NCBI RefSeq assembly: GCF_035594765.1
Contig: NC_085844.1
Location: forward strand, 182,420,107 to 182,484,106
Direction: 5' to 3'
DNA length: 64,000 bases
DNA from: Anolis carolinensis
Lineage: Eukaryota
Shown: one piece after another, positions 3,434-63,376 of the stretch
Layout: every line of letters begins with the position of its first letter
Numbering within the stretch: position 1 is the stretch's first letter
Program-made: the position numbers and the translations under genes
Notes under the pieces: generated by a model
What the model was told of the DNA's origin: nothing
The model's input: only the letters and a program-made list of their open reading frames with translations
Databases searched by the model: none

Positions 3434-3622
3434 TATTTTCACGTCAGGAGCGACTTGAGAAACTGCAAGTTGCTTCTGTTGTGAGAGAATTGGCCGTCAG
3501 CAAGGATGTTGCCCAGGGGACGCCTGGATGTTTGATGTTTTGCCATCCTTGCGGGAGGTTTCTCACACGTTCGAGCATGGGGAGCTGGAGCTGACAGAGG
3601 GAGCTCATCCACACTCTCCCCA
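3434..3622 (-). mobile_element. Vingi-related SINE copy (part of head retained)
   Basis: Family body ...gggcaac...ggccaattctctc...gcaacttgcagtttctcaagtcgctcctgac plus A-rich tail, shared with copies at 14117, 20461, 30534 and 35835. Confidence 0.8.
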
Positions 3623-13678: not shown

Positions 13679-16600
13679 CAACTTTATTTTATAACCTGCC
13701 TCCATCTCCCTGAAGGGACTCGGAGTTGCTCACATGGGGACCAAGCCCAGAAGTGAAAATAAAGTTAAAACACAACAACAATATAGTTAAAACAGTTGAG
13801 CAATAAAATAAAACATCATAAAATACATCAGTGGGTATCAAAAATGAAAGGTGGGGCTATTAAAATTGCAAGGGAGGGGCAGCATGTGCAAAACGCAGGA
13901 CAGTAAAATCAGGAATGAGAGTAAAGTACTGGAGATCACCATTAAACATGCAAGCAATTACAATGTTACTTGAGATAGCATCCTAAGGGCTTTTTCTGGA
14001 TCACAAGTGATGCAAGGTGTCCAAGAAAGCTGCATCAACTCTAATTTGCAGAAAAGATTAGGTGTTTCATACAATTTTACTTTATCTACAACAGTCTAGA
14101 AATCACTTTTAAGCCAGGACATGAGAGAAGCCTTCCACAGGATGGTAAAACATCCATCATCTGGGCATTTCCTGGGCAACGTCCTTGCAGACGGCCAATT
14201 CTCTCACACCAGAAGCAACTTGTAATTTCTCAAGTCACTCCTGATACAAAGAAGAAGAAAAACGGTTAAGCCACATGCATGTCCATTCAGAGGTTAGAAT
14301 TATCAGAGTGAACAGAATTTTCAACATCAGAACATTGTAAGCCTGCCTTTTCCTGCAGTGGAGGTGATAGGAAAATGGAGCGGTAAGAAAGGAAGAAGCA
14401 AATTTCTTTACACAGAGTCCTGTCATCACCTTCTCTTACTTATGTAATATTAGGATTCAGGTAACACAGTACTTACAAGTGTTCTAGGTAGGTGGCAGAG
14501 CCATCAGCAAAGGTGCCTCCAATACAAAGGTTATACACAAAGTAGTCCATATTGATGAGCTTAAAGGGAACCAGCTGGAGAAAGAATTAAACAAAGAAAC
14601 AAGTCTGGATAAAAAATAATTATTACTGTAAAATCCCATTGTGAAGATAAGAAATAATTTGCCCATTCAACTAAACCATTTTGCATGAAACAGTAAGGCA
14701 GAGCCACAATTCTCCTGGTAATGATATCTACAAAGATTCTGAAAAAGGGAAAGTTGTTCCATGAAATGGACCCAAGTCATAACTGTTCAGTACAGGCTCT
14801 GGCATTTCAGAGACAAAGAATTATTAGAAGCTCAGCTGCCACACATCCTCTGGTGTTGACACCAACAAATACAGATATTTATGCCAAATATAGCTATTCT
14901 AGAATATGTGTACTCTTAGATATTTAAAATCTATGTCAGTATTCTTTCCCACAATACTAGAAGGATGTATGGCAAAAGCCTACAGATAATTTATTCAAGG
15001 CATCTGCCACAAGAAGGTACAACAGTATCAAAACTTAACATTCATTAAATTTACACCTATATCCATATGGTGCCTGGTAATAATCTGAGTTTAAGGCCGA
15101 AGTTCATGCACCCATTCGTAATTATGTATTTCCCCCCTTAAAAGATGACGGGAAAGAAATGTTAACTTGAGAAATCTAAGAAAAATAAGAAGCCTTTTCA
15201 AACTCATGTGCCTCTGTGGATTTATTTAACATGGTGCTACAGCTAAATAAATCCAGACACACACTGGCATGGCTAAACTGAATACTAGGGGGCGGGGTGG
15301 GTGGGGGGGAATACCGAATTTTGAGAAATGGCAAAACATTATTGCATCCTCAATGCAACATTTCTGTTCAATATAATATGCTTTTAACTGCCTGCTCACT
15401 AACCCTAGCTCTCAAGGTGCTCTTAAAATTATATCCTCCAATCACAATACTGCAAATATAGTTACTAAAATATAAAATGAACACCAAATCATCAGAGAAT
15501 GAATCATGTAATATAAAACAAATATTCTTCTTTGAGGACATGTCTCCATCAAGGATGCATTACTATAAGGGACTATAGACAGTCAATAGTGGAGTCTTTA
15601 AAGTGTCCCTGCAATAAAACGGTTTTGATTTTTTTCAGCATCTGGAGTTTCCACCATCATTTGTTTCATGTTGTGGTGTTATCCACATTTTTGTCATTGT
15701 TTTTATCCCATCCTAGTACCACCTAATTCAACATATTTTATAATGGCTGCTGTCAAGCCAAATTCTAACATGCACAGTATGAAGTGAGGAGTTGAAATGG
15801 AGGACACATACCACATGGCCAGCCTTTTCTAGAAGCTCCTTGGTTTCCAGTATAGCTCTTTTCATGGAAGGGGTTGGCATAAGAAATGAATCGGTGACAT
15901 AGTATCCTATTCGGAGGGGATGAGAGCTAGAGTACACCTGGAGCCACGAGGGAAGGGAAGAAAAGAATTTCAAAGTGATCAGAACACATACAAATCCTAT
16001 TGGAATCTGCACGGATCAGCCAGCAGGCTGGGTGAGCATGGGTGAATCTACATTGCAAAATACTGCAGCTTGACTCACTTTTTATTTTAATTTATATCAT
16101 AGTTTTCTTCCAAGCAGAATTCAAAGTGACAGACAAATATAAAACAGAACATCTGGAGCAACATGAAGTATATAATTTAAAGAGCGCTAAATCATCCATC
16201 AAATTAAATGCTTTTAACAGGTTGGATTAAAAAAATAATGTAAAAGTACATCTTAAAAACAGTACACCTGTTACATGGTCAATTAAGTCTGTTTAAACAT
16301 GAAGATTTTTCCTTGCTGGCAAAAAAGCAGCAGAAAGGGTGGAAATTAAACCTCTGTTGTGACTGCGCCTTCGGGGATTATGGTTGATGGGGATGGAATT
16401 CGAAGAGGAAGAAAAAACCCTCGTGATGAGGGTTCACTGGAGGAGTTGCGCAGGAAGCGACTTAGAGAGCTATATGGGGGATCTTCTGAGGAAGATTCAG
16501 ATGGGGAGATGGATGCTGAGGAACAGGTGGTGGCTGGGGAAGCGGGCACTGAATGGGCACAGCCACCGGAGATGTCTGGGGATTTGGGGCCTATGGATAC

Positions 16601-17536: not shown

Positions 17537-20500
17537 TTATTTTTATGCACCGCTTCTATCTCCCCGAAAGGACTCGGGGCAGCTTACATGAGGCCAAGCC
17601 CGGATAAAAACAACAAACCAAAATAAAATAACATCAGAGACTACAAACACAAATATTAAAATATAACAGTCTAAACACAGTAAAAAGTTTAAAATTATAA
17701 TCATTATAAGACATGGATTTGGGATCCAAGTGGAGGGGGTACAAAATGAGCTGGGCAAAGTGCAACAATTGAATATTGTATACATGAGGTAGATAATTAA
17801 GTGCTAGCATCAATGAGAGAGCAACTTGGGGTGGGGTGGACCCTGTGACTACAACAGACTAATAGGGCAAAATAAAGTAAAATAAATAAAATAAAATAAA
17901 ATGATCACTTTTTCCTCATCCAAACAGAAGGCAACAAGAAATCAAGCAAGCATCTGCAGTGCTGAGCAATAATATTTGTTTTGTTCTCCAGTTATCGGTA
18001 CATCAGTAAGAAAACAACGCTATTGCAAATGGCACAGCTATTGAAAGAGAAGGCAGAGAGATTTTTCAAACATTTCACTCCTTTCTCTATGATTTCTACT
18101 TTGAGTATGTACACAATCAAACGTCTCACCTGCTCATTGAAAGGAAGGGGAGGCACCTTGGGATCCAGGCGGAACATTTCCTCACACAGCAGAGATCTCA
18201 GACAAATAGCGAGGCTCTCAACATCCCTTGCCATAGGTCCTACACCTGCAACAACTAGGATCAAGAAAAGAATTGTAGTTTTCACAATCTGATCTTTCAG
18301 ACTCAGGGAACATTTCTGGGAGAAGTAAGAAGTTATGTTTACAACAAGAATCAACAAAGCTTGGGGCTCAGAAAAGATTACTTTTTGATTACATCCTCCC
18401 AAACATTACTTTTTGACTATGGGCCCTTCCACACAGCCCTATATTCCAGAATATCAAGGCAGAAAATCACACATTACCTGACTATGGACTCAGATAACCC
18501 AGTTCAAAGCCAATATTGTGGATTTTTCTGCCTTGATATTCTGGGATATAGGGCTGTGTGGAAGGGCCCTACATTGCCCCAAATCATTTCTGAGGGACTG
18601 TGGTAGCTGCATTCTGAAAAATGTAACTTTAACAAGTCCTGATCTTAAAGCGTAAAACAACCTAAAGTGCCATTTCCTTCTTGGAAGAGCTGGGTGATGC
18701 TGGTACCTAAAAAGTAATTTTCTGAGATTCCCCACCCCCATATGTAGCAAATCAAAATGATTTCAAAAAGAGACAAATCATGTGTTTGTGAATCAGATAT
18801 CTGAGACAACAACTTTCCTTGCAACCTAAAACTGCTCTATGTGAATGTCTCATATTCATTGTTGCTAGCAATTCAAAACTGAAATTTTTAAAACTTTTAA
18901 AATGTCTGTCAAGAATTAAATATTGCAAAGGAGATTATGGAAGAACCTTTGTGCACCCCAAAGGGATGTGAAAGATGCAATGCCCCCTCAGAGACTTTCT
19001 AACCCAGGCAAACTTTGACTCTCCAGGTGTTTTAGACTCCAACTCCCACAATTCCTAACATAAGGTAGGCTGTTAGGAATTGTGGGAGTTGAAGTTCAAA
19101 ACACCTGTAGGGCCAGTGTTTGCCCATGCCTATTTTAACCCCTTACTGCCACAACTTTTTCATTTTTAAAAACCACTGCAGAATTACATATCAATATAAC
19201 AGCACATTGTTTAGAAACCAAGCAAATCAAAAACACTACATTGAAAACTCATACCACCCTTTTGGAAACATGAACAAGGAGTGAGAGTATTGTGGTGGTG
19301 CTGGTAGGATGACGATATAGCCATTACTGTGTAGACCAGATAAGGCGTAAGACTTACACAATGCCAAATATCTATCAACTAATCTTTCCACTTTATTCAG
19401 ACAAAATCACACACCTGATTTCTGCCCACCAAGGCTTCGTATAACTCCTCTTTTGCTGTAAAAAGATAACCAAAATAAGAATGGAAAGCAAAAACAATAG
19501 TTTTAAACAAAGCTTCACTACTTTCCTAATTGGGAAATCTTTCTCAGGTCCAAAAGCAGTTGCTGCTTCAAGCAACTAAGGATGCATCTAGACTCTAGTT
19601 TGACATCACTTTAACTGCCATGGCTCAATGCTATGGAATCACAAAAGTTGTAATTTGGTGAAGTATCAGTACTCATTGGCAAAGAAGACTAAAGAACTTG
19701 TAAAACTTCAAATCCCAGATTCCATCACATTGAGCCATGACAGTTAAAGTAGTGCCAAAGTGTGTTAATTCTGCAGTGCAGATGCACCCTTAGAGGTCCC
19801 CTCCACCACGTGGCAGAGAAGGTACTTTAAGGAACAACAGCCTGCTCAGGCCCCTTCCACACTGCTGAATAAAATCCCACGTTATCTGTTCTGAACTAGA
19901 ATATATTGTCAGACATATTAAAAATTAACTAGGTATTTTAATTACAAAAATGTGATTTAAGCACTAGAAGGGTTAAATAAACCAGCATTGCCCTGAGGAG
20001 AGTGAGTACATCAAAGCCTGTTATAGTTAGTGGGCCAAAGCTAGTGTCGTCCTGAGGTGCGTGAGAGAAGCCTCACTATGAGGTAAGCCTCAGTGTGTGA
20101 GAAGGCCTGGTGTGAGAAGCTTCGGTGAGAGATGACCCAGTTGAAGGCCTCTTGTGTGAAGCTCCAGTGTGAAGGCTGCTGTGTGTAAAGCTACTGTGTG
20201 AAGCTACTGTATAACTTTGGTGTGAGAGGAGGCTCTGTGAAAGTGAAGCTGTTTATCTGCATGAAAAAGAAGTCCAGCATGGAAGCAAAGAAAGAAGTAC
20301 AAAGAACTTTATTTGTATTGTGAAAACCTTGTTTTTGTAAATAGTGCAAACCATATTATTTTACTATAAAGAAAAGCCTCCTAAGGAAAAGATAACATTT
20401 GTCTGTGTGTTTTTGTTCTATTTATCACTTTGGGCTACTGGTGCTGGGTTACACTGCTGCTTTTTTTTTCCATGTCAGGAGCGACTTGAGAAACTGCAAG

Positions 20501-23500
20501 TCGCTTCTGATGTGAGAGAATTGGCCGTCTGCAAGGACGTTGCCCAGGACACACCCGGATATTTTGATGTTTTTATCATCCTTGTAGGAGCTGGAGTTGA
20601 TAGAGGGAGCTCATCCGCGCTCTCCCCGGGTGGGATTCGAACCTGGCAGCTTTCAGATCAGCAACCCAATCTTCAAGTCACAAGGCTTTAATCCACTACG
20701 TCACCGGGGGCTCCCACTGCTGATAATAAGTTGCTATACATTTATGGGAAGGGTCTTTTGTTAATAAGCCCACTCGCCCAACAAGGGTTATGGGCCCAGT
20801 ATAGCCCTGTCTAGACCAATACAGACCATTGTGAGGCGGAAGAAATATGGCTATAGCATTTCAAGCAAGTGGACCGCCTTTTGAAAGGTTGAATGCCAGC
20901 AATTATGCCACATTGTTATTTAAAATAAAAAAATGTACCTTATTCGGTCGCCTGTAGTTTTGAGTCCACAAATCCCACAGAAGCCAGATGGAATACGGAT
21001 GCTGCCTCCTATATCTGTGCCGATGCCCAAGATTGATCCACCACTTTTAATAAGTGAGGCTTCTCCTCCTGAAGAACCACCTGGGGTTTTGGTGTGATCC
21101 AGAGGATGCACTGTCTGGCCAAATATTAAGTTGCTACAGTCAAAGCTGAAAATAAAGACAAGACAGCCAATAAAACAGACACAAATACCCCAAATCTTTC
21201 AAATAGAGGTCTGGAATACAATTTCAATCACACCCTGCCTTTAGCAACCCTGTCAATTGCTTGGGAAGAGAAATCTTTATTTCACTAAGGGACCACAGAA
21301 GCTCCAACTATGCAAAACCCTGCTTTCACTCTATTCCCCACGAGTGGGAGAGATTCCCCCATCTACCACAAACATTTGCCTGTCCAATTGGATAGTAAGG
21401 AGATGTTTTTCTATGCAGAAAGAGGCACAAAACGTCTGTAAATGGCCACTGAAATGAGCCCAGTTTGATATAAAAAGCACACCAGCTCCAAAATCTAAGG
21501 CTGTTCCCTGTCACTGCCTTGGGTCTTTCAAGGAGGTGTAATGCTCCAGGTCTTTTATTGAAACATGGCAAATACAGCCACAAGCTGGCTTTATTGCTGG
21601 GTATTGTAGGAGAGGGGAAAACAGCTATGGTGGTTGGGAAGCCAAAAGGAACCATTTTCAAACTTCTAGTTGAGCATGTAGAGTCTATCTCCTTTCTATC
21701 CTTTCGTACCACTAGAAAACAATAACTAGTCATTGTATTTCTTGAATGAGGTGTAGTAAGAATGGAGAGATGATTACCACAATAAAAATGGCTACTTTTT
21801 AAAATAAAAGCTGTGCATGCTCAAAGAAATTAAATATCACTGAAATATCACTTATAGTACAGTATAAATTGCTCCTTGGTAATATGGGAAGCATGCAGTT
21901 CTCCAATTTATTATTAGGTTGCTATTCTCATTAGTCTTCACTTCCTTCACCAATGGGGAGGGATCATGGGAGTTGTAATCTAGTTTCTCCCTCAATTTTC
22001 CATGAAGCATTATTTTTATTCCGAAGCTATTTTCAATATATTTTGGAACACAAGAGACTAATGGTCTAACAGCCAACAAGCTGATTTTGCAGAGCTAACA
22101 AAACCATTTTCCTTGCCCAACTGTCATACCACAATGTTAAGTGTTTTCATGCTTTTACACACTATAAAGATGGACTCTAGAAGCTCCACTGTCAGCCAGA
22201 CAGGGGCCAGTTTCATGGCATCCAGTTTACATCTTTTGTGTTTTATCTCTCTGGGGACAATTGAAGCGTTGCTCTAGGCAGTTTTTGTAAATCTGCTGTG
22301 TATCTATAAACAAGGGCCTTCAAATAAGTTGCTAGATAGAAATTGGACAGAAATTATTCATAGTTAGTAAACAGAAAGTTCCATTCTACCAGTCATGTGA
22401 GGTCTGAAAATATCTAGTAAGTTTCTGAGTATCTATGTAGAAATCCATATATACCAGCAGTTAAAAGAAAGATTTACTTCATTAAAGACTGAGGGACATT
22501 GGTTTTTACAAATGGAATTGCTCCTTGATGTTTCAACACCTGGACTAAAACAGCATCTTCCGCTGCTGGATGATTGAGACGTTTCACAAAACCCAAAGTA
22601 GAGTCAAAGCCCTGGAAAAAAAACAAAAGGAGATTATTCATATGCCCTGCAGAAACTTTATGTATCATGCAACAATCCTGATCATAATATAACAGAACAT
22701 CACAAGCAACAGACTAATCATAAATAACATGCATCTCCCACAATTTGTACACAAAATAGTTTCATTTCATTTTATATTCAGATCAGCGACATATGTAGGA
22801 ATGTTTACCATGTGACATTCCTCCAGTTCACCAAAATTAGCCAAAAAGAGATTAACATCTTAAATGTTCTTGTGATTAATTATGTAAAAAAGATTGTCAC
22901 ATTGCTGATTACTTTCACTTACCATTTCAAACATATGAAGTAAAGGAAGGAAATGTATTTTTAAAATGCATTTCATCCTGATGCATCTATTTTATTTTTG
23001 TCATTTGTTTTGTTTGCCATACTTTTGAGTAAATCAAAATAATTTTGAATATGAACTGATTAATAATATTCTTGAAATACATGGACAATTGTATTCCAGT
23101 ACTAAAGTTAAGCTCAACTGCATATGGCATGACTAAATTCTTGAAAATATATACTAGCAGGCTAATCAAGGAAACATTTTTGTTAACTGTCAATTCCACA
23201 ACTGTACAATTTTTTTTCAAAGGTTTCCAGAATAGTGAGGCTTTGAATGATTTGACATGACAAGAGGACCCATCATAGGATGGGAAAAGGACTTTATGAT
23301 GGAGTTCACCAAGCCATAGTTACATATTTCTCTGTTTCAGTCTATCAAAAAGATTGTTCAGCATATGAAATGGAATTTCATGAAATAAGAATGAAGAAAG
23401 GACATGGAGCTTGGGATATAGCATCTGAGAGGGACTGGAAATTACCATTTAGGGTCGTTTATAAGATCTCTTAACTAATCACATTTAGATGCTAGATTCC

Positions 23501-26500
23501 AAACCCCCTCGATAGTCACCTTGTCGTGGTGAGGGGGCTTGTGTGTTCCGATGAACCTGCGGGCACAACCACTGGAGTCATGCACTCCCAGAAGTGGCCG
23601 CAGGGGAGGTTCCAGACCAAGCACAATCCGAAGACCCAAAGACCTCAACGGCGGAGCAGGCGGAGGATAACATGGTACATGTTACAACGGCTGTGAAGGC
23701 AGAAGAAGGCTGCAACAGACTGAGAAGCCACTCTTGTTGTGTTAACCACACCACTGCTGGAACCTCACTCTGTGAAGACTGTGTGTTGACCAGCCGTGCA
23801 CTGACCTCCACACATTTAAAAAAATCACGCATAGGCGTCTTCCAACAAAAATAAAAACAAACCTACAAAAGTCCCATAGCGATCAGCTAGTGGCAACGGG
23901 GCCAGGACTGTGAAATCTGGAAGCCCCTAGTCACAGACTGGCACATGGGCCCTTCCCCATGTGGGGTGAGCAGAGCGGATCCTAAAAAGGGCTGCTCAGT
24001 CATGGATACAGCTGACGGACTACTCAACTGCCTCGGTCCTTGAGGTAGAACGAATGAGTCCATATGGTGGATATGGACTCAGTCGTTCTACCTCAAGGAC
24101 CGAGGCAGTTGAGGAGTCCGTCAGCTGTATCCATGACTGAGCAGCCCTTTTTAGGATCCGCTCTGCTCACCCCACATGGGGAAGGGGCTAGAAAAGGTGC
24201 CCTAAACATAGTCTGCCTCTCCTACCCTGACTGGACTGCCGCGTCCAGAGGGGTCACCACTCTGTGGCCAAAAAAGAGAAATGAACTTTGGAACATGGAC
24301 ACTCTTGGATAGCACAGACAGCGAACACCCCGAACGCAGGACTGCTATCATAGCAAGGGAGCTGGGACGCTTTAAGATCAACATAGCAGCCCTTCAGGAG
24401 ACCCGGAGAGCAGGAGAGGGACAGCTGAAGGAAGAAAAAGGAGGCTACATCTTCTTCTGGAAGGGACTGCCTGAAGAAGAGCGAAGAATACACGGAGTTG
24501 GCTTTGCTATCAGAAATGACCTGGTGAAGCACCTGATTGAAGCATCCACTGGCATCAACGAACGACTCTCAACCCTCCGAATTAACCTTGCCAAAAACCA
24601 ACAGGCAACCATCATATGCGCCTATGCACCAACTCTAGATGCTGACGAAGACATCAAGGAAAAATTTTATTGTCAGCTGGACACCATCCTATCGGAGATA
24701 CCTAAGAAGGACAAAATCATCCTCCTGGGGGACTTTAATGCCAGAGTCGGACGGGACTCCGACCTGTGGCCAGGGATCATGGGAAAAGACGGGGTCGGAA
24801 ACAGCAACTCGAATGGCATCTTGCTTCTCACCAAATGCGGAGAGCACAACCTTGTCATCACCAACACGCTCTTTTGCCAGAAAAACAAGCTCAAGACATC
24901 ATGGAAGCACACCGGGTCAAAGCATTGCCACCTCTTGGACTATGTAATTACACGTGCCAGAGACCGCCGCGATGTGCTTCTCACAAGAGCCATGACAGGT
25001 GCTGATGACTGCTGGACAGACCACAGGTTAATCCGATCCACAATGGCTATCAAGATCGTCCACAAACGGCGACTCCAAGGAAGAAAAACAAGGCGTAAAA
25101 TGAACACCCAAGCCCTTCAGGAGCCCTCCAAACGAGCCCTTCTCCAAACAACACTCAAAGATCATCCACCCACAGAACACCCCGAAAATGTTGAGGAACA
25201 TTGGAACAAACTGAAGACCTCCATCATCACAGCCTGCGAAGAAACCATTGGATACCAAACTAAGAAACATCCAGACTGGTTTGACGATAAGGACAAAGAG
25301 ATCCAACAGCTAATTGATAACAAAAGGAAAGCCTTCCAAACATGGCAGAGAGACACCAACTGTGCTGCCAAGAAAAAGTTCTATGCCAGTGCAAAAGCTG
25401 AGGTCCAAAGAAGGACCAGAGAACTCAAGAACATCTGGTGGACAAAGAAGGCTGAAGAAATCCAACACTTTGCAGATACCCATGATGCTCAGGGATTTTT
25501 CAAAGCCACAAAGATCATTTACGGACCAAGAAACCATGGCATACAGCCTCTATGCTCATCAGATGAAACCAAAATTCTGAAGGACAAAACATCAATTGCA
25601 CTACATTGGAAAGAGCACTACCAGAACCTGCTGAATCGCAGCTGCAATGTGGCTGAAGAGACCCTCTCACAAATCCCGCAACAACAAACCAGGGATGAGC
25701 TTGCAGCACTGCCTAGTTTGGAAGAAGTTAGCAATGCCATCAGCCAACAAAAAAAACAACAAAGCCAGCGGACCTGATGGGACCCCTGCTGAAATGTTCA
25801 AAACGGGTGGACCTGAACTGATACAACAACTCCACCAGCTGATTGAAAAGGTGTGGGTGACCGAGAAAATCCCAGCAGACTTCAAGGATGCCACCATCAT
25901 TACCCTTTTCAAGAAAGGGGGCAGAACAGACTGCGGGAACTATCGTGGTATCTCCCTTCTAACCTCCGCTGGGGAAATCCTCGCAAGGATTCCTTGCAAA
26001 CCGCCTTCTCCCTGTTTCAGAAGACACCCTCCCAGAATCCCAGAACGGCTTCCATCCCTCCAGAGGAACAGTGGACATGATCTTCACTGTACGACAGCTC
26101 CAAGAAAAATGCAGGGAACAAAACCAACCTCTGTACATGGCATTCATTGACCTTGCAAAGGCATTCGACACAGTGAATCGCAGCGCTCTCTGGACCATCC
26201 TCCAAAAAATCGGGTGCCCTGACAAATTTGTGAACATCCTGCGGCTCCTCCATGATGACATGATGGCAACAGTCTTGGACAGCAACAGCTCCCAAAGTGA
26301 CCCATTTAAGGTGAAATCAGGTGTCAAGCAGGGATGTGTTATTGCCCCCCCCCTTATTTTCCATCTTCATCGCTATGATACTTCACCTTGTTGATGGGAA
26401 GCTTCCCACCGGTGTGGAAATCATCTATCCGACAGATGGCAAGCTATTTAACCTCAGAAGACTGCGAGCCAAAACCAAGGTCACCACAACATCTGTTATA

Positions 26501-27771: not shown

Positions 27772-30700
27772 GTGGACAGTGTCATACTATAATGCCAATC
27801 CCACCCACTTCTATTGGTTTTTCTTGGGAAAGCATTCTTGTCCCAAGTTTTGGGCAATATATTTTAAAATAGACACCCCATACTAAAATTTGCTCAAGAC
27901 ACCTGCTCAGTGCCCATAAAACATTTAAACTCCATGCCCAATTTATGCTTTGTCACATGAATGCCAAGCAACCTGCCCATGGTCCATCCTGGCTGTACCT
28001 TGCAGTCAATTGAGTCCTTTATACTGACAGGAACCCCATAAAGCAAACCCTTATTTCCTTGACTTTTCACTTGCAGAAGTTGTGATTCACTGTCTTCAAG
28101 ATAATCAGTCAAACAGTTGACATCCTTAGTGACTTTCAAAGCCTATGGAAAGCAAGAGAAGGCAGCCAGTTAAGCAAGACAGCTGTAGTGGAAATATCAC
28201 AGAAGACAAATGTATATAGAGGAAATAGTACAGTGTCACAGTTGTGTTATGTATTTCCTACAAATACCTTAAGGCAGTGATTCTCAGCCTGTGGGTCCCC
28301 AGGTGTTTTGGCCTACAATTCCCAGAAATCCCAGCCAGTTTACCAGCTGTTGAGATTTCTGGAAGTTGAAGGTCAAAACATCTGGGGACCCACAGGTTGA
28401 GAACCACTGCCTTATGGGTAAAAAGTTTATTTATGATCTATATTTGCCAAGTATGTAACTTTGAATCAAATTTAACTGGGAACAAATGGCCTTGAGATGT
28501 GGGATGCCTTGACCTGGACAGGTTCCTCCTGATGATCAAATTGATCATTATTCACCAGATTGGGTGATCTGGCCAGTGTCTATTGTTTAATGCAGTGGTT
28601 CTCAACCTGGGGTCCCCATTTGTTTTTGGCCTTCAACTCCCAGAAATCCTAACAGGTGGTAAATTGGCTGGGATTTCTAGGAGTTGCAGGCCAAAAACAT
28701 CTGGGGACATAGGTTGAGAACCACTGTTTTAATGGTTAACTCCAGAAGCGACTTGTAGTTTCTCAAGTCACTCCTGAAACACAAAAAATAGTTTAGTTAG
28801 CCCATTATTCACCTGATTGGGTGACCTGGCCAGTATCCACTTGTTCATAGCTGGGCAGTGTTTACTTGTTTAATAGTTCAGATAGACCTGAGTTTCTCAA
28901 ACTGTGCTCCTCCAGATGTTTTGGACTTCAGCTCCCACAACTCCTAACAGCTGGCAAACTGGCTGGGATTTCTGGGATCTGAAGTCCAAAACACGTGGAG
29001 GAGTACAGTTTGAGAAACACTGAGGCAAACCATCATTTCCCTGATTGAGTAGCCTAGCTAGTGTCTACTTGTTTAATGTTTTGTGTAGCCCAATTAAAGA
29101 CATACAGTAGGATTAAAGCAAAGTACTTAGGCAACTGAGATGCTTATATAAGTCAAGAGAAGTTAGATTTAAGTTGAATTTCACTACCGACTGAGGTCGG
29201 GGATATAGGATTTGCCATTGGGGCATCTCTGGCTGTCATTCTCAGCGTTCCCAACAGACTAATTGAGACAGATTTGCTAGGTTTGTATGCATTCTTTGAT
29301 GTCTTGCCTGTTTTTCAATAAAATCTTGTATCACTTGGGTGTTCATTGTCTTTGAATCTCAAAAGAACCCTTTACCTTTGGCAAAACAACAGCTGCCTCA
29401 AACAGCAGATTGGGGAGGCAAATACCAACAGTGACTTGTTGCCGGACAGAGCTGTATATGACCCTCCCTAAGCTAGTTTGCTAGGAAGTAGGATTTGACT
29501 GGCACTCCACTTGGATTCTGTTCATATCATAGTGAGTAGGGGAAGATATCACCTTATCCTTTGCCTCAAAGATCAAAAATGATTTGACTGAGCCCTGAGA
29601 TACATTAATTGTAAGCCATAGCACAAACTTATGGCACTATATAAATATACAGTACAGATACCATCTCAAAATAACCATTTTAAGGGCATTCCCCCTGGAT
29701 TAATGTGGATGTTCTTTGTTCCACAACATTGACAGGGTTCACACTGGCTATCATTGGCCTTTCTCACATACTTCACCTTACTTGTTCGGTTGTTCAGAAG
29801 CCATCCCTCACCTTGTCCATGTAAGTATAGAGAACACTTTCAGGCAAAAGTAAACCATCCCTGAGTTTCCTACAGAGTTCAGGCAGGCTCAAAGACAAGA
29901 TTGATTCTGGTCGGTGGCTTGGATTCTGAATGAGAAAAGGAAATTATCCATGCATTAACTATAGCTCCCAATGATCAAAACACTCTGCCCAGCCTGGCTG
30001 TTTATACCATATAATCCACCCACACAAGCACCATGTGTCTATGTTTCTTTTGAGAGAGCAGAGCAGAGGACCCAGAATTAGCCAATGTTGTTGCATAAAC
30101 TGATTCAAGGATGTTTGATCTGCATCTGAAGAGTCTGGCCTTGGATTTCATTTCTCACTGGTCGCCCTTAAAACCTACTTGTCAGCCACAAAATGAGAAC
30201 AAGAACAGCCTGTTTTGGAAGAGCCCTTGGGAAGTTACATAAAACAAAATTATTCAAGATAACAATCTTATATTTCAGGTTGCCACACTATTTTGAAATA
30301 AAACGTATAACTAAGCACAAACACATATAACTGGAAACATGCACAATCTTTCTCTTTTTTAGCTCAGAGCATTGAACCATGTTAAAGCGGTGTCAAACTG
30401 CATGAATTCTACAGTGTAGATGCACCCCTGGATAAAGTATTCTCAACCTGTATTGTTAACTGGAGCCAGTTTGACAACTGACTTGAAGAAATAATAGTTG
30501 GTTACTAAGTCCAGCCATCCATAATTTAATGAAGGAGCTTCTGGTGGCGCAATGGATTAAACCCTTGTGTCAGCAAGGCTGCTGACTGACAGGTTGGCAG
30601 TTTGAATCCTGAGCTTCCATCTGTCAGCTCCAGCTCCCCTTATGGATCATCCTTGTGGGACATGAAAGGCTCCCACAAGGATGATAAAACATCAACATCC

Positions 30701-33700
30701 GGGCATCCCCTGGGCAACGTCCTTGCAGACGGCCAATTCTCTCACACCAGAAGCAACTTGCAGTTTCTCAAGTCGCTTCTGACATGAAAAAAATTAATGA
30801 AACCTCTAAAATATTCACATATTCAAAACAACTGAAAACGATTTCAGTTCATTTGATTGCAGATGCCGTTTGGTTACAAAAAGTCATTCTGCTTCTTCAA
30901 TAATGAAATCATCTCATCACATGAAGAATTATTTTATTCTGTTCTTTTGTTTGCATCCATCCGCCAATAAATATCTCCAGACTCTTAATAGTATTATAGA
31001 AATGTGTGTGCATCACAACATGCTGTGTATGTCCTGGTGCTGCTCTGCTCCAATGACCACAAATATGGACTTTCTTCTAACAGCCACATCTAAAAATCAT
31101 TACAGGAGTACAGTATAGCTGTATCACAATTAGTGGTTACTGAATGTTAGATCCAGACCTACAGCACTAGGTTCAAAGTCTCTTTTGCCAGGAAGCTGGT
31201 TTCGTCATAGGGCAGCATCAGGTCTATTGGTTTGAAGTTACAGAATGATAGATTTCAACTGAACTGCAGAAGGAACCTCTTGACAGGAAGAGTGTGTCTA
31301 CACTGCAGAATGAATACAGTTTGAAACCACTTTGACTGGTACAACTCAATGCTATGGAATCGTTGATTATTTATTTATTTATTTACCATACTTGTATCCC
31401 GCCTTTCTCAACCCCGAAGGGGATAAAAGGCAGCCTTACAAAGGCAACAATTCAATGAATAAACAAAAACATTAAAACCAAACAATGAAAACATATTATT
31501 AAAACAAGAATTAAAATCATATAATCCAGGTTGCAGTTTGTGGAGACACAAGCCCTTTTTGTCCCTGGAGGCTAAAGACTTTGGGTGTATCTACACTATA
31601 GAATGAATGCAGTTTGATGCCACTTTATTTTTGTTATGGCTAATTGCTGTGGAATCATAGGAGTTGCAGTTTGATGGGAAACCAGCACTATTTGGCTGAG
31701 AAGGCAAAAGACCTTCAAAAAACACAACTCCCATGATCACAAAGCATTGAGCCAAGGTAGATGGAAGTGGTTTCAAACTCTGTTAATTCTGCAGTGTAGA
31801 TGTACCCTTTGGAAAACTGCAACTGCAAGAATTCTATAGCATGGAGCCATGGCAATTAAAGTGCTGTCAAACTGTATCGATTCCACAGTGTAGATGCACC
31901 ATAAAAGTTTGGCAGTGGACTCAACTGGCTAGGGAGATGGTGGGGTTTCCTTTTGTGGGTATCTAAAAGGCAGATTGCCATAAGCATTTGTGGGGGGAAA
32001 ACACTTCAGGCAGCATCTTTAAAGTGCAAGGATAACAATATGAATTGGTTCAATTTCATTTTAACAGGCTTAATTCTGACTCAACAATAGGTTTAGGATT
32101 GCAGTGCACAAGTTGCATGCCAGCAGGTGCCTTTTCCATTCCAAAGGAAGGGGAACAGAGATTTCTATACCATTAGATTATGTAACACAATTTTGCTCCT
32201 GGGTGATAAAAGCCATTTCCTAACTGGTTCTATCATAAAAACATGGGGAAAGTTTATTAAACTGCAAAAACTTTGTTTTGGGAGGACATCCTGCAGCACA
32301 TTTTGCTATAGTTTTTCAATGAATATCTCATAGAGTCTCAATCAATTCAACATAGTTTGTGGAAGCCACGAAAATGAAGTTTCTGCAGGATAATAACTAC
32401 TGTACTTTCAAAGTAAGTTCCACACATTTAAACAGGAAATAACACTTTCAAACTAGGAACATAGTTCTTTTCAAATTTTGTAACATAGTGTTATGGTCCC
32501 ACTTGAATTTCCTGGGCTGCCTCCCATGGAATCATCTTTGAGAGCTCTTGGAGAAAGGGACAAGTCTCAGCAGATTGGAGGAGGGCAAATGTCATCCCTA
32601 CCTTCAAGAAGGGAAAAAAGGTCAACCTAAAGAATTACCGTTCGGTCAGCCTCACGTCGATACTGGGCAAGATTCTAGAAAAGATAATTATGGAAGTGGT
32701 CTGCAAACACTTAGAAAGGAATGCGGTAATTGCTAATAGTAAACATGGATTTTTCAAAAACAAGTAATTCCAGACTTATCTCATCTCTCTCTCTCTTTTT
32801 TTAACAGAATTACAAGCTGGGTAGATGCAGGGAATGCCATGGATGTAGCCTATCTGGATTTCAGTAAGGCCTTCGGCAAGGTCCCCCATGACCTTCTGGC
32901 AAAAAAGCTAGTCAAATGTGGGCTAGGCAAAACTACGGTTAGGTGGATCTCTAATTGGCTAAGTGAACGAACCCAAAGGGTGCTCACCATCCTGGAAAGA
33001 AGTGACAAGTGGAGCGCCGCAGGGTTCCGTCCTGGACCCGGTTCTGTTCAACATTTTTATTAACGACTTAGACAAAGGGTTAGAAGGCACGATCATCAAG
33101 TTTGCAGACACCAAACTGGTAGGGATAGCTAATACTCCAGTAGACAGGAGCAGAATTCAAAACGATCTTAACAGATTAGAGAGATGGGCTGAAACTAACA
33201 AAATGAAGTTCAACAGGGACAAATGCAAGATACAGAATGAGGGACACCTGGCTCAACAGCAGTACGAGTGAAAAAGACCTTGGAGTCCTTGTGGACAATA
33301 AGTTAAACCTGAGCCAACAATGTGATGCGGCAGCAAAAAAAGCCAATGGGATTTTGGCCTGCATCAATAGGAGTCTAGTGTCTAGATCCAGGGAAGTCAT
33401 GCCCCCCTCTATTCTGCTGGAATCACACTGTGTCCAATTCTCGGCATCGCAATTGAAAGGAGATGTTGACAAGCTGAAATGTGTCCAGAGGAGGGCGACT
33501 AAAATGATTAAGGGTCTGGAGAACAAGCCCTATGAAGAGCGTCTTAAAGAGCTGAGCATGTTTAGCCTGCAGAAGAGAAGGCTGAAATGAGACATGATTT
33601 ATAAGGGGAAGTCATAGGAAGGAGGGAGCAAGCTTGTTTTCTGCTGCCCTGGAGATGCGGAACAAGGGCTTCAAACTGCAGGAAAGGAGATTCCACCTGC

Positions 33701-35834: not shown

Positions 35835-36109
35835 TTTTTTTATCATGTCAGAAGCGACTTGAGAACATACTGCAAGTCGCTTCTGGTGTGAGAGAATTGG
35901 CCGTCTACAGAGATGTTGCCCAGGGGATGCCCGGATGTGTTACCTTCCTGCTGGGAGGCTTCTCTCATGTCCCTGCAAGCTAGATCTGACAAACAGGAGC
36001 TCACCCCATCTCGCAGATTTGAACCGGCAACCTTCAGGTTACCAAGCCAACCTTCAGGTCAGCAGTCCAGCCAGCACAAGAGTTTAACCCACTGCATCAC
36101 CGCAGCTCC
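35835..36109 (-). mobile_element. tRNA-headed Vingi-related SINE inserted in an old CR1 3' end (about 35600-35835)
   Basis: attctat duplicated on both sides; family body and tail. Confidence 0.85.
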
Positions 36110-36737
36110 TATTCTATGACCCTGTCCTACACAATTTTTTTTTAATTTAAAGACCAACCCATTTGGAATGGACGCAGAGAATACGTCCCATAGAACAGAT
36201 AGAAAATATGACTTCACTGTGTAATATTGAGAAGTGCCAGGGATGCAGTGGGTGCTATAACAAAGCAAAACAAAACAAATGAGTGCCACTTTCATTTAAT
36301 AAATGCTTATAGAATCATAGACTTGGAAGAGACTACAAGAGCCATCCAGTTCAATCGCTTGCCATACCTAGTTATCTGAACTATATTCTCCCATGAGTCC
36401 CTTTATCCTTTAAGATCTTCTGGACAGGCCTTTCTTTCTCTCCCACCACTTCCATAGGTTCATGTTTGGGAACGTGGTAGAATGCCTTATTGATGGCTGT
36501 GTTTAAACCAGTGGTTCTTAACCTGAGGTCCCCAGATGTTTTGGCTTTCAACTCCCAGAAATCCTAACAGCTGGTAAACTGACTAGAATTTCTGGTAGTT
36601 GTAGGCCAAAACACCTGGGGACCTACGGGTTGAGAACCACTGTTCTAGACTCTGGGAGTCACTTCCTATACCTATGAGTTAGACTGTTGCCTTTCCTATG
36701 GTTCTTTCACAGGCAGGTAAAGACTGTTTTGTTTCGA

Positions 36738-41655: not shown

Positions 41656-52682
<11,027 letters not shown>

Positions 52683-56717: not shown

Positions 56718-59700
56718 TTACTTCAGTTTTGGGAAGAGCTTATGAGCCACCTGAAAGCGAAGAAATAAACACATTAAGGAAAATATATGCAACCTATTAG
56801 TTCCTTTGGGAACAATTGTGCCCCATGCACAATAATCTTTGTCTCGTCACATTCCAGAAAGCTATTTATACAGGGATGTACTGTAATAGCAGCATATTGT
56901 CTCATAGAATTTAATAAAACTTTTGCATCGTTACTCAAAAGTCTTGTCTAAACTATCAATGTAAATAAGATGTCTAAAAATCATACATTTTATGCTAGAA
57001 ACCTGAAAGTATTTTAATGCCTACAGAACGCCAAAATGAAATTTCAATTTTTTTGCAAATGAGTGGATACTTAATTGTTCCTTATTTTATGCTGATGGCA
57101 AGTTTCTGTGATTCAGCACTAGGGAGGCTTCACAGTCACAAACTAACACTTACACAATGATCTCTAGCATGCAAGAAGTCAAAGAGTTCCTCTGTACACC
57201 GTTCTTCCGTATGGGACCTAGAGGACACTCGAGCATCACACTCCTCCAGACGTTCCCTGGCTTTCACACATTTTTCTGTCTGTTCACAGTGTTCCCTGAT
57301 AGTAGTCAAAGGATCCTGGAAAGAAAGTGATGTGTGAACAATTAATCGAGATCTCATTGCTAAAAGAGTGGTTCATCTTTATCAAGACAAGCTGATAATA
57401 AAAATGTACCTTCTGTAGCCCTACAATTATAACAAGTTTAGAAATCCTGAACTATATCCTTATAACTTCATCAATTTTATACTACGTACTTCCTATACTG
57501 AACAGCATCTTCAAGTGGTGCATAGTGTTAACAATGTGTCATTTCAAAATAATGTACTATTCTTCCTGTATCATCATTTTAAAAAGATATGATTAGGAGT
57601 CCTAGAATTATAAATGAGTTATGTATGACTGATTAGGGAGCAGGCCCCACATATAGCCTGCAGTCCATACAGAATTCATTTTTTACTCTAAAATAAATGT
57701 TGGTGCTTGCAAAAAACAAACATACATGTTTTGAGCTTTCTAGACAGCACAGTTTAAAACAGTGGTTTTCAACCTTTTTTTGACCAGGGATCACTTTGAC
57801 CAGGGACCACTCTCCAACATTAGTACCAAAAGGGTTGCAAATCAGTTTTTGGTCAACTTTAGATTTGGTTTGGTTATTTGAGATGCTAATTCAGAAAATT
57901 GCATAGGATAGACCACATCAGCTCTGATGCAGAACATATGCCATCCAGTAGCCGCCATCTGCTCACCCACAGAAAACCATATTTAATAATCCAGAGCTGA
58001 TGTGGTCTATCCAATGCAATGGTCAGCTCTGCAGAAAGGGGTGGAAATAAAATAAATAAAATGGATAAATAAAGAGGAAGGAGGTTCGCGGACTGGATTT
58101 TCATTGAGAACCACTGATTTAAAAGAACAAATTATAAAAAGCATAGAATAACATGCAACACTGATATTTGCACAGGATAGCAAAAAGTTTAAACTAGGCT
58201 TTACCCCTTCCATCTATCTATTAATGTATCACTATTCCTAAATTATCAGTTTCCAAGAAAAACACTGTATACTTCTGAGGATTAAAGCAAGATATAGTTA
58301 TACTTAGAAAGATCAACTTTTCTGAATGTGACAATGTGCAGAAATCAGTGTAGTACTCTACCCATATTAAAAATTATACAAGTTGGCAATATGGTAAGTA
58401 CCATAAGAGACTGCATTATGATTCTAAGATAAAGTGTTATTTGGGTATTGAAGGACTACCGGCATCTCATTTTTACTAATTAACTTTTGATTCTGAACCT
58501 GAATACTCGCTACCATTTTGTGCCATTAACAGCTTTCGAGATCTAATAGGGAAATTTCTTAGAAACTATTTTTTGTTGTTACTCATGATCACCAGGGAAA
58601 CCTGGTCAGTTATTATTATTAAAATTACATACCACAAGGTCTTCTTCCTCCTCCTCCTCCTGGATCAGAAAACAAGAAAATCAGAATGGACTTACAAGTG
58701 TGCTTACATTTACACAATGAGAATACACCCAGTCATAGCTACACCAACAATTATGTCAACTATTTCCATTTTTGCTTTATTTTATTTTGTGTCAAAAGCA
58801 TTGCATAATAAATAAATTTAAAAAGTGATGAAATAAAAGAAATCACAAGCAGCTAAATAGTTTTAGACCAAAAGCAGGCAACAGCAACCACATTGTCCCT
58901 AGCTTTAAACAACTCCTCCTCTGTACATGAGGCAGGACATTGTGGGCAAGCATACATATGAGGAGTTGTTTGTTCTGCTCTACAGCCACACAAGGTGGAG
59001 GATTCCTCCAGGTAGTGCCACTTTGCCAAGTTGTCTTTTGATCTGCCCACTCCGCTTCTGAGTCTGTTTAGGGACTTCTAAGTTGCCCATTCTTGGTTTG
59101 CCCCTGGAGGAAGACCCTCATGGGGGGCCATCCAGTTAGAATTGCCTGGTTTAGCTACCCAGAGGGACACTCTTGCTGTTGCTGGGGGAACAACTAGAGG
59201 AGTGGTGGTTCTCATGAAGCCCTTCCTTGATTTGAGTCTGGTGGGAGGAGGCTGATAGTCATGCAGTGGGTGGCTTTCACAATGTTCGACCTTATTCCTC
59301 TCACAGTTAGCAACAACTTCCAGTCGCACGTCAGGAGGGGCAATGGCGGCTAACTTGTAGGGTTTATCAACAGGTGTAAGTTTAAGGCATCCTGTGATTA
59401 TTCTGCATGTTTTGTTCAGTGCTATGGCCACCTGCTTCGCATGGGCAGACTTGTGCCAGACAGGATAAATGTCTATGGGGGACATAGAAAGAGCCTCCTC
59501 GAAGACTGAGTGAATTCAGTCGGGCGTCCCCCGGGCAACGTTTCTTGTAAACAGTTAATCTTTCCAACTCAAAAGCTTTTTTAATTTTTTTTGTTAAATA
59601 CTATAGTTCTCTATTATAACACATGTTTTATATTTGCTTAGTACAGAAAATATTTTTTTTAATTCCTAGATACTTGTCTCATATTTATGCAAGCTGATTT

Positions 59701-62736: not shown

Positions 62737-63376
62737 GTAAGAAGGGGGAAAAAGGACAAAATAACACACACAGGATGCATCCATATCAGGCCTGGGCAAA
62801 CTTGGCCCCTCCAGGTGTTTTGGACTTCAACTCACACAATTCCTAACAGCCTACTGGCATTTAGGAATTGTGGGAGTTGAAGTCCAAAACACCTGGAGGG
62901 GCCAAGTTTGCCCAGGCCTGATCTATATTCTGGAATTAATGCAGTTTAACACCACTTTAACCTTCATGGCTCTGCAATCCTGGGAGTTGTGTTTCAGCGA
63001 GGCCACAGCCCTTTTTGGCAGAGAGGGCTACAGATCTTGTGAAACTACAACTCCAACGGTTCCATACCATTGAGCCACGACAGAGTGAAAGCGGTGCCAA
63101 ACTGCATCCATTCTACAGTGTGGAACTGAACTGTCATAAGGCAACCTCTTTCTCGTCCTTTGAAATTCTTCTAAGGACATTGGGAGATCTTCTGGAGCAC
63201 TAGTTCTCAATCTGGAATCCCCAGATGTTTCTGGTCGTCAACTCCCAGAAATCCTAACAGCTGGTAAACTGGCTGGGATTTCTGGGATTTGTAGGCCAAA
63301 AACATCTGGGGACCCCAGGTTGAGAACCACTGCTCTGGAGAGTTTGTCAGGTGGATTCGGCCTTGGGTATTCCTCA

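Follow-up and report, generated by a model that had tools for sequence, protein, structure and literature searches.

Two Vingi LINE families of Anolis carolinensis carry at their 5′ ends a variant of the HDV double pseudoknot, and a tRNA-headed SINE family built on one of these ends has C instead of G at the first position of the fold, lacks G25 in its dominant subfamilies and leaves headless copies which start preferentially at the third base of the fold. We propose that leaky cleavage of the SINE RNA followed by loss of two bases produces these headless +3 copies, and that the changes in the masters leave residual cutting; we give this reading about an even chance (roughly 0.5). The analysis started from a window of 64,000 nucleotides, the whole stretch of DNA studied, and was extended to copies elsewhere in the same genome.

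Architecture of the SINE Family and Its Partner LINE

A search of the own genome with a 23-base pattern of the SINE tail gave 18,764 exact matches. Most copies have a tRNA-like head, recognised by the B-box-like GTTCGAATCC, while ARAGORN found no tRNA gene in the window. The head is followed by a Vingi 5′ part and a Vingi 3′ end, with TSD and A-rich end, as in the SINE2-1_ACar type. SINE2-1_ACar and SINE2-1B_ACar were documented, with Vingi-2_ACar as partner, as a tRNA head, a Vingi 5′ UTR and a short Vingi tail (PMC5786205; PMC3747384). Judged by that published description our family fits the type. The architecture is already in print, and so is the idea of a conflict between head and ribozyme: Kojima 2018 stated that 5′ truncation results when a SINE head is followed by a self-cleaving ribozyme (PMC5786205). 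In the part of that article used here, the list of clades with a demonstrated ribozyme includes Ingi and does not name Vingi.

The partner LINE was identified through headless copies continuing into an ATG and an endonuclease-like start. Its ORF has a match to RVT_1, and one copy comprises 3,124 bases between 12-bp TSD copies, the TSD abutting G1. The SINE body corresponds to the 5′ UTR of this LINE as far as the ATG, and 15 nt of the SINE tail correspond to its 3′ end, which was obtained from L321–L323; the 3′ end of L142 was rejected as it belongs to the other Vingi family. From its anatomy (APE start, RT, ~3.1 kb) and its link to the SINE, the partner is probably a member of the Vingi clade. 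Moreover, some bipartite copies have five G and the SINE tail and no head (L033, L050 with TSD, and L054). Since such headless G1 bipartites exist, the module existed without a head. The proposal of the initial annotation, a tRNA head joined to a Vingi-derived ribozyme-plus-tail module, found support in the shared body, the tail match and these bipartites.

Some further features of the family were observed. The tail hairpin (14210–14243 in the window) has a 5′ arm from the LINE 5′ UTR and a 3′ arm that overlaps the LINE 3′ end, and it is shortened in the young C subfamily. In the dimers L253, L259, L263, L267 and L269 the second copy begins at −15 to −18, directly after the A-tail of the first, and in L073–L075 the SINE 3′ half lies in a tandem array. 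LINE copies are normally 5′-truncated, and the many partner-LINE copies among L121–L150 which retain the 5′ end, with homology ending after 300–1000 bases, are unusual.

An HDV-Like Fold at Vingi 5′ Ends

The first ~90 bases of two Vingi LINE families fit the HDV double pseudoknot (P1, P1.1, P2, P3, P4), with L3 enlarged on its 3′ side by an extra hairpin. In a fold alignment of 12 rows, 92% of the cells were paired against 36–51% in controls with slid partners. Both sides have changed in 8 of 28 pairs (four in P2, two in the L3 hairpin, two in P4), a covariation which represents a single split between the two families and not many events. Comparison of one Vingi 5′ end with Rfam returned the three HDV-like families as top matches (E 8e-4). 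The alignments run from end to end, place the insert within L3 and score under gathering (27.8 bits vs 44); a further Vingi stretch scored 19.7. A Rfam scan of the whole window found no ribozyme at E ≤ 1, the matches appearing only on short stretches of the Vingi ends.

The genomic HDV, F. prausnitzii and CPEB3 ribozymes (RF00094, RF02682, RF00622) share with the Vingi fold P1–P4, P1.1, GGGCAAC, C75 and the L3 core U-C-C-N-N-G. The Vingi fold differs from them by its hairpin of 17–20 nt at the 3′ side of L3 and by its scores below gathering. The positions G1, U20, G25 and C75 are given in what we take to be the HDV numbering, matched to the Rfam alignments. At the LINE ends the +1 purine is paired at the end of P1 (G1·U or G1–C), U20, C21/C22 and A78 are in place, G25 (a CpG site) is found in 15 of 26 and C75 in 25 of 26; the L3 is longer than the 7–8 nt of HDV, as the hairpin is inserted. 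On this model, the Vingi LINE 5′ end is predicted to self-cleave before G1, and the L3 hairpin may itself weaken the cleavage. This variant of the fold, with its hairpin in L3 and support from covariation, is new here, and Rfam misses it at threshold. A literature search for Vingi with ribozyme, and for tRNA SINEs with HDV-like ribozymes, found no description of the fold; one may be in print.

The second Vingi family has ~25 exact 5′-end matches genome-wide, none of which showed a tRNA head within the 16 bases listed, and the window holds a 5′-inverted insertion of it at 58787–59564.

Start Sites of LINE Copies

In 30 ORF-anchored copies of the partner LINE, one of which was the query, the start lies at +1 in 15, at +2 in two, at +3 in four and further in for six, the region being absent from three; internal deletions were judged by eye. 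For the second Vingi family, 18 of 25 matches begin at +1 (by eye). The pooled LINE starts, 33 at +1 and 9 at +2 to +4, differ from the SINE starts described below with p 3e-6, even when five doubtful SINEs are counted as +1. The base before the start is T in 16 of 18 second-family +1 ends and in 8 of 14 partner LINE ends (by eye). G1 is missing from 3 of 10 LINE 5′ ends.

Position +1 and G25 in the Headed SINE Masters

Forty headed A/C copies were picked regardless of their 5′ part (tail-anchored or incidental). At +1, opposite U, they have C in 33 and T, the CpG product, in seven, with no G; the eight B copies have C in four, T in two, G in one and A in one. G25 is absent from all 40 A/C copies vs four of eight B copies which keep it, as the majority of Vingi ends do. 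C75 is kept in 38 of 40, and the helices are intact in the subfamily majority sequences. The headed masters therefore lack the purine which HDV has at +1, and A/C lack in addition the G25 opposite U20. Searching for G at +1 gave 207 exact matches; among 30 that were read, six are headless LINE-type or bipartite and most of the others are headed copies with single-copy changes. The comparison of P1 position 1 suggested in the initial annotation thus separates the headed masters (C or T in 40/40 A/C) from the LINE. G25 loss in the dominant subfamilies was absent from that annotation, as were the L3 hairpin and the location of the start-site spike at +3.

In the literature, HDV is stated to require a 5′ purine (PMC11331408, citing earlier work), mutants of the HDV U–G pair in L3 are 232–528-fold slower or inactive (PMC3386971), and a Leishmania ribozyme with a C1 mismatch cuts very poorly (PMC4035085), as far as the consulted parts of these sources go. 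By analogy, C at +1 and the loss of G25 are predicted to slow cleavage.

It had also been claimed that headed copies have a damaged 5′ half. Per-copy defects are indeed present in the window copies at 3434, 20461 and 30534, the 35835 copy has C at +1, and gross damage as a trait of the headed lineage was rejected on the 40-copy sample: divergence from the reference is 5.9% in the 5′ strands (P1 2–7, P2, P3) vs 7.4% in the 3′ half, and over 16 positions of the P1/P2/P3 5′ strands 17 of 40 copies show no difference and 14 show one. On this comparison, the damage in three headed window copies is ordinary per-copy decay. Sequestering of P1 by the head as a special attenuator was likewise rejected, since the leader of B, A or C pairs no more strongly than random flanks do, and only A2 stands out; the pseudoknot energies are rough and were excluded from the evidence.

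Copies in the Window

The features of the window are collected in Table 1. In the 14117 copy, GGAC directly follows the 8-bp TSD and corresponds to P1 +4, which lies 3 nt beyond the predicted cut. In a related species, contigs from two runs join 14055 to 14265 by 53 letters, which is as long as the unique flank. The site is empty in that species; therefore the copy was inserted headless. Sequence and empty site agree with the earlier description of a headless copy whose TSD abuts GGAC within about 3 nt of the predicted cut. The 3434 copy had been counted as headed; its P1 is replaced as noted, while its 5′ end lies inside the head and the A/B box is absent, which makes it a copy 5′-truncated within the head. 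Of the 3′ half, said to be intact in five copies, the stretch from GGGCAAC to GGCCAATTCTCTC is present in 5/5, and the 14117 copy (ATTTCCT) and the 20461 copy (GTGTCCT) carry changes in the P1 3′ strand.

Table 1. Positions of SINE and Vingi features in the window
Feature	Position	Strand	Detail or basis
Headless SINE copy, 5′ TSD copy TTAAGCCA	14109..14116	+	sequence; empty site in related species
Headless copy (A2 subfamily), HDV-like fold remnant	14117..14206	+	sequence mapped on fold; subfamily score
14117 copy, P1 5′ strand +4..+7	14117-14120		
14117 copy, P2	14123-14129/14199-14205		
14117 copy, P3	14130-14132/14164-14166		
14117 copy, L3 core	14133-14139		G25 absent, C21>T
14117 copy, L3 hairpin	14140-14144/14151-14155		
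14117 copy, P1 3′ strand	14167-14173		damaged
14117 copy, P1.1 GG	14174-14175		
14117 copy, P4	14180-14183/14190-14193		
14117 copy, catalytic-C position	14195		
14117 copy, remaining Vingi 5′ UTR followed by short tail (3′ end Vingi-like) and A-rich end	14207..14265	+	
14117 copy, 3′ TSD copy TTAAGCCA	14266..14273	+	
SINE copy truncated inside head	3434..3622	-	P1 5′ strand replaced, copy-specific
Full-head SINE copy	20461..20715	-	P1-P3 5′ strands deleted internally, copy-specific
Headed SINE copy	30534..30790	+	local rearrangement before P1, copy-specific
Headed B-subfamily SINE copy	35835..36111	-	+1 = C, G25 kept
Sixth SINE copy	28739..28788	+	tail only
Vingi 3′ fragment adjoining inverted 5′ end	58787..59465	-	
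Second Vingi family, 5′ end with covarying HDV-like fold	59477..59564	+	starts at G1, C75>T

Apart from these elements, the window contains hairpin MITE-like repeats (19025–19106, 28301–28996, 36534, 49246–49852, 62813–63307) with sub-threshold Rfam matches to mir-5408, which are likely repeat-derived and not microRNA genes. A near-perfect palindrome of 237 bases is found at 23950–24186, with 116-nt arms of 98% identity and a 5-nt spacer. Elsewhere in the genome, the same 3-base insert between the P3 3′ and P1 3′ strands occurs in L062, L064–L068, L070, L080 and L250, in several subfamilies and only near contig starts (the first 2.1 Mb of C1; C2, 1.4 Mb). For an insert common to different subfamilies, gene conversion, a local source and an assembly artefact are the alternatives.

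Headless SINE Copies and the Spike at +3

For the histogram of starts, SINE bodies were anchored at +17 with bases −24 to −21 not fitting the head, and the matches listed were 100 of 242, 55 of 55 and 87 of 87. Of these 242 listed matches 90 were taken as loci and 80 of the other 152 were fetched; the 72 that were left nearly all showed the head continuing. The 170 that were scored comprise 74 headed copies with internal deletions, 23 dropped (microsatellite two, duplicate two, other element eight, head remnant four, dimer five, inversion one, out of range one), one LINE copy and 72 truncations, which span −19 to +17. Expected counts were obtained from simulated uniform starts.

Among the matches listed, 17 of the 72 truncations start at +3 (2.4 expected, p 2e-10) and 24 start at +2 to +4 (6.2 expected). 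None of the 72 listed starts at +1, or at most five when CpG decay and chance matches are counted generously. A second cluster at −4 to −2 holds 14 of these listed truncations (6.4 expected, p 0.004), for which cleavage offers no explanation. It had been predicted that headless copies start at P1 and that a histogram would show a spike there. The starts are not uniform and the spike was found; it lies at +3 and not at the cut site, and other starts are common. Disjoint lists inspected by eye repeated the spike: one gave about 8–10 of 22 starts at +2 to +4, and another gave ~23 headless +3 copies among the 100 listed of 295 matches. Scaled up, there would be roughly 180 exact-anchor headless +3 copies, ~1% of the family; unbiased samples contained one in 30 and none in 30.

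The head itself contains a CGGGGA run that can serve as a control. At the matching offset there were 0 of ~19 starts (by eye, best 100 of 189 matches; Fisher p 0.018), while over a three-position window the run gave 3–4 of 19 against the 24 of 72, which is not significant in the same best 100 of 189 matches (p 0.41). The 3434 copy of the window begins within this run.

The spike copies come from A (six), A2 (six), C (five) and B (seven), with one further A2 copy read as +5, and in several of them the TSD ends at, or overlaps, +3. Descent of the +3 copies from one headless master was rejected, as all four subfamilies contribute. Template switching to Vingi RNA predicts five-G starts on SINE bodies and was rejected too, none being found in the 72 truncations among the matches listed. 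The share of the spike is similar in B, which keeps G25 (7 of 16), and in A/C, which have lost it (17 of 56; Fisher p 0.37). Among the spike copies the base before the start is T in 16 of 24 (9.0 expected), and in the disjoint +3 list it is T in 19 of 23. At other truncations this is so in 9 of 25 and 3 of 13, and at full-length SINE heads in only 13 of 33, for which reason this T was rejected as a generic mark of run-off. The signature connects +3 insertion with the end joining of full-length LINEs; therefore the +3 RNA likely ended at P1.

Proposed Mechanism and Alternatives

In the mechanism that we favor, Vingi LINE RNA would self-cleave before G1. C at +1 together with G25 loss would leave only residual cutting of SINE RNA in the dominant subfamilies, and these changes may have been kept as cleavage would remove the Pol III promoter. 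The rare SINE RNA cut at +1, with a 5′-OH, would then lose one dinucleotide by a DXO-like activity and be inserted as a headless +3 copy. If the in vitro behavior of DXO, which removes dinucleotides faster from a 5′ C than from a 5′ G, applies here, C-started SINE RNA would become +3 and G-started LINE RNA would mostly stay at +1, which is the pattern observed. With neither promoter nor G1, the headless copies would be dead ends. The DXO step is a post hoc proposal, and the pairing of P1 could keep DXO from the RNA end.

The equal spike in B and A/C counts against a source limited by catalysis. This, with two changes predicted to be crippling, is also an argument for a less probable reading in which the SINE ribozyme is dead, the fold or a bound Vingi protein marks the end for a host nuclease, and intermediates at −4 to −2 and +3 are reverse-transcribed. 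Such a nuclease would fit the lack of +1 starts and the extra cluster just upstream of P1, and HDV folds have been proposed to block 5′–3′ exonucleases regardless of activity (PMC11331408, in the part consulted). An exonuclease should nevertheless stop before P1 and not two bases within it, the Vingi-type T is seen only in the +2 to +4 group and not at −4 to −1, and a minor +3 class is also present in Vingi. The last point, +3 copies from a Vingi with G1, also speaks against slipped cleavage, in which C1 is unpaired, P1 shifts and the ribozyme cuts before G3. The spike is sharp, and P1 pairing sets the cut site of the R2 ribozyme, which can shift (PMC3774820, as far as consulted), but the shift would need two mismatches or a 2-nt bulge in place of six straight pairs; we regard this as very unlikely. 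Only slightly better placed, and still improbable, is an origin of the spike at the DNA level through RT drop-off or G:C microhomology of cDNA and target in the GGGG run. In L199, L298, L310, L311 and L252 the TSD does overlap one or two of the leading G, and in A2 a hairpin of the head can form pairs with the G-run. On the other hand, TSDs end exactly before +3 in L244, L264 and L313 and before +4 in the 14117 copy, the spike is present in B, which has no head hairpin, the leader pairing in B, A and C is no stronger than with random flanks, and the matched CGGGGA run is empty at that offset (best 100 of 189).

Whatever the origin of the +3 copies, the changes in the masters may have arisen without selection: C at +1 would be the base with which the head ended in the founding fusion, and G25 would have been lost by drift. 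We consider this a serious contender, somewhat short of even. It agrees with a single origin in this genome and with the LINE ends that are without G1 anyway. Against it, there is no headed subfamily with G1 among the 207 exact G1 matches, mostly single-copy changes in those read, the G25-less subfamilies exceed B by 40 to 8, and the alligator SINE2-1_AMi matches its own Vingi from position 2, according to the section of PMC5786205 consulted. With one founding fusion, selection and accident cannot be told apart.

Relation to Known Systems and Significance

SINE2-1_ACar and SINE2-1B_ACar with Vingi-2_ACar have the same tRNA head, Vingi 5′ middle, Vingi 3′ end and lizard host as the present family. 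In the parts of their descriptions consulted (PMC5786205; PMC3747384), the ribozyme fold, the changes at +1 and G25 and the start-site spike were not found. SINE2-1_AMi of alligator likewise has a tRNA head directly before a Vingi 5′ end and is an independent family by its published description (PMC5786205); its match to Vingi from position 2 hints at a second case of a headed SINE without G1. The Pr77 of L1Tc/ingi elements (L1Tc, NARTc, RIME, SIDER) likewise has an HDV-like fold and is placed at the 5′ end of a LINE related to Ingi and of the bipartite elements derived from it, and its variant with a C1 mismatch has very low activity; these elements differ in that they have no upstream tRNA head, and no L3 hairpin is described in the part of PMC4035085 consulted. 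The hammerhead SINEs of Schistosoma are likewise Pol III SINEs in which a ribozyme detaches the copies from their promoter, and differ by an active hammerhead in tandem monomers which is not LINE-derived (PMC6765202, as far as its account was consulted). The variant fold, the two specific changes in the masters and the quantified, displaced start spike are new here.

Vingi-1_Acar serves as a platform for gene writing with its native 5′ UTR, and in the portion of that report consulted ribozymes are mentioned for R2 only (PMC13708176). A ribozyme at Vingi 5′ ends, if true, would bear on the design of templates for this system. It is possible, and we put it forward tentatively, that Vingi carries an undescribed HDV-like subtype which was hijacked by a SINE and disarmed stepwise, first at G1 and then at G25, and that the +3 copies are fossils of 5′-OH RNA processing in the germline. 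The incompatibility of LINE ribozyme and SINE head raised by Kojima 2018 (PMC5786205, as far as consulted) becomes directly testable in this family, in which two bases can be named and the headless copies have been counted.
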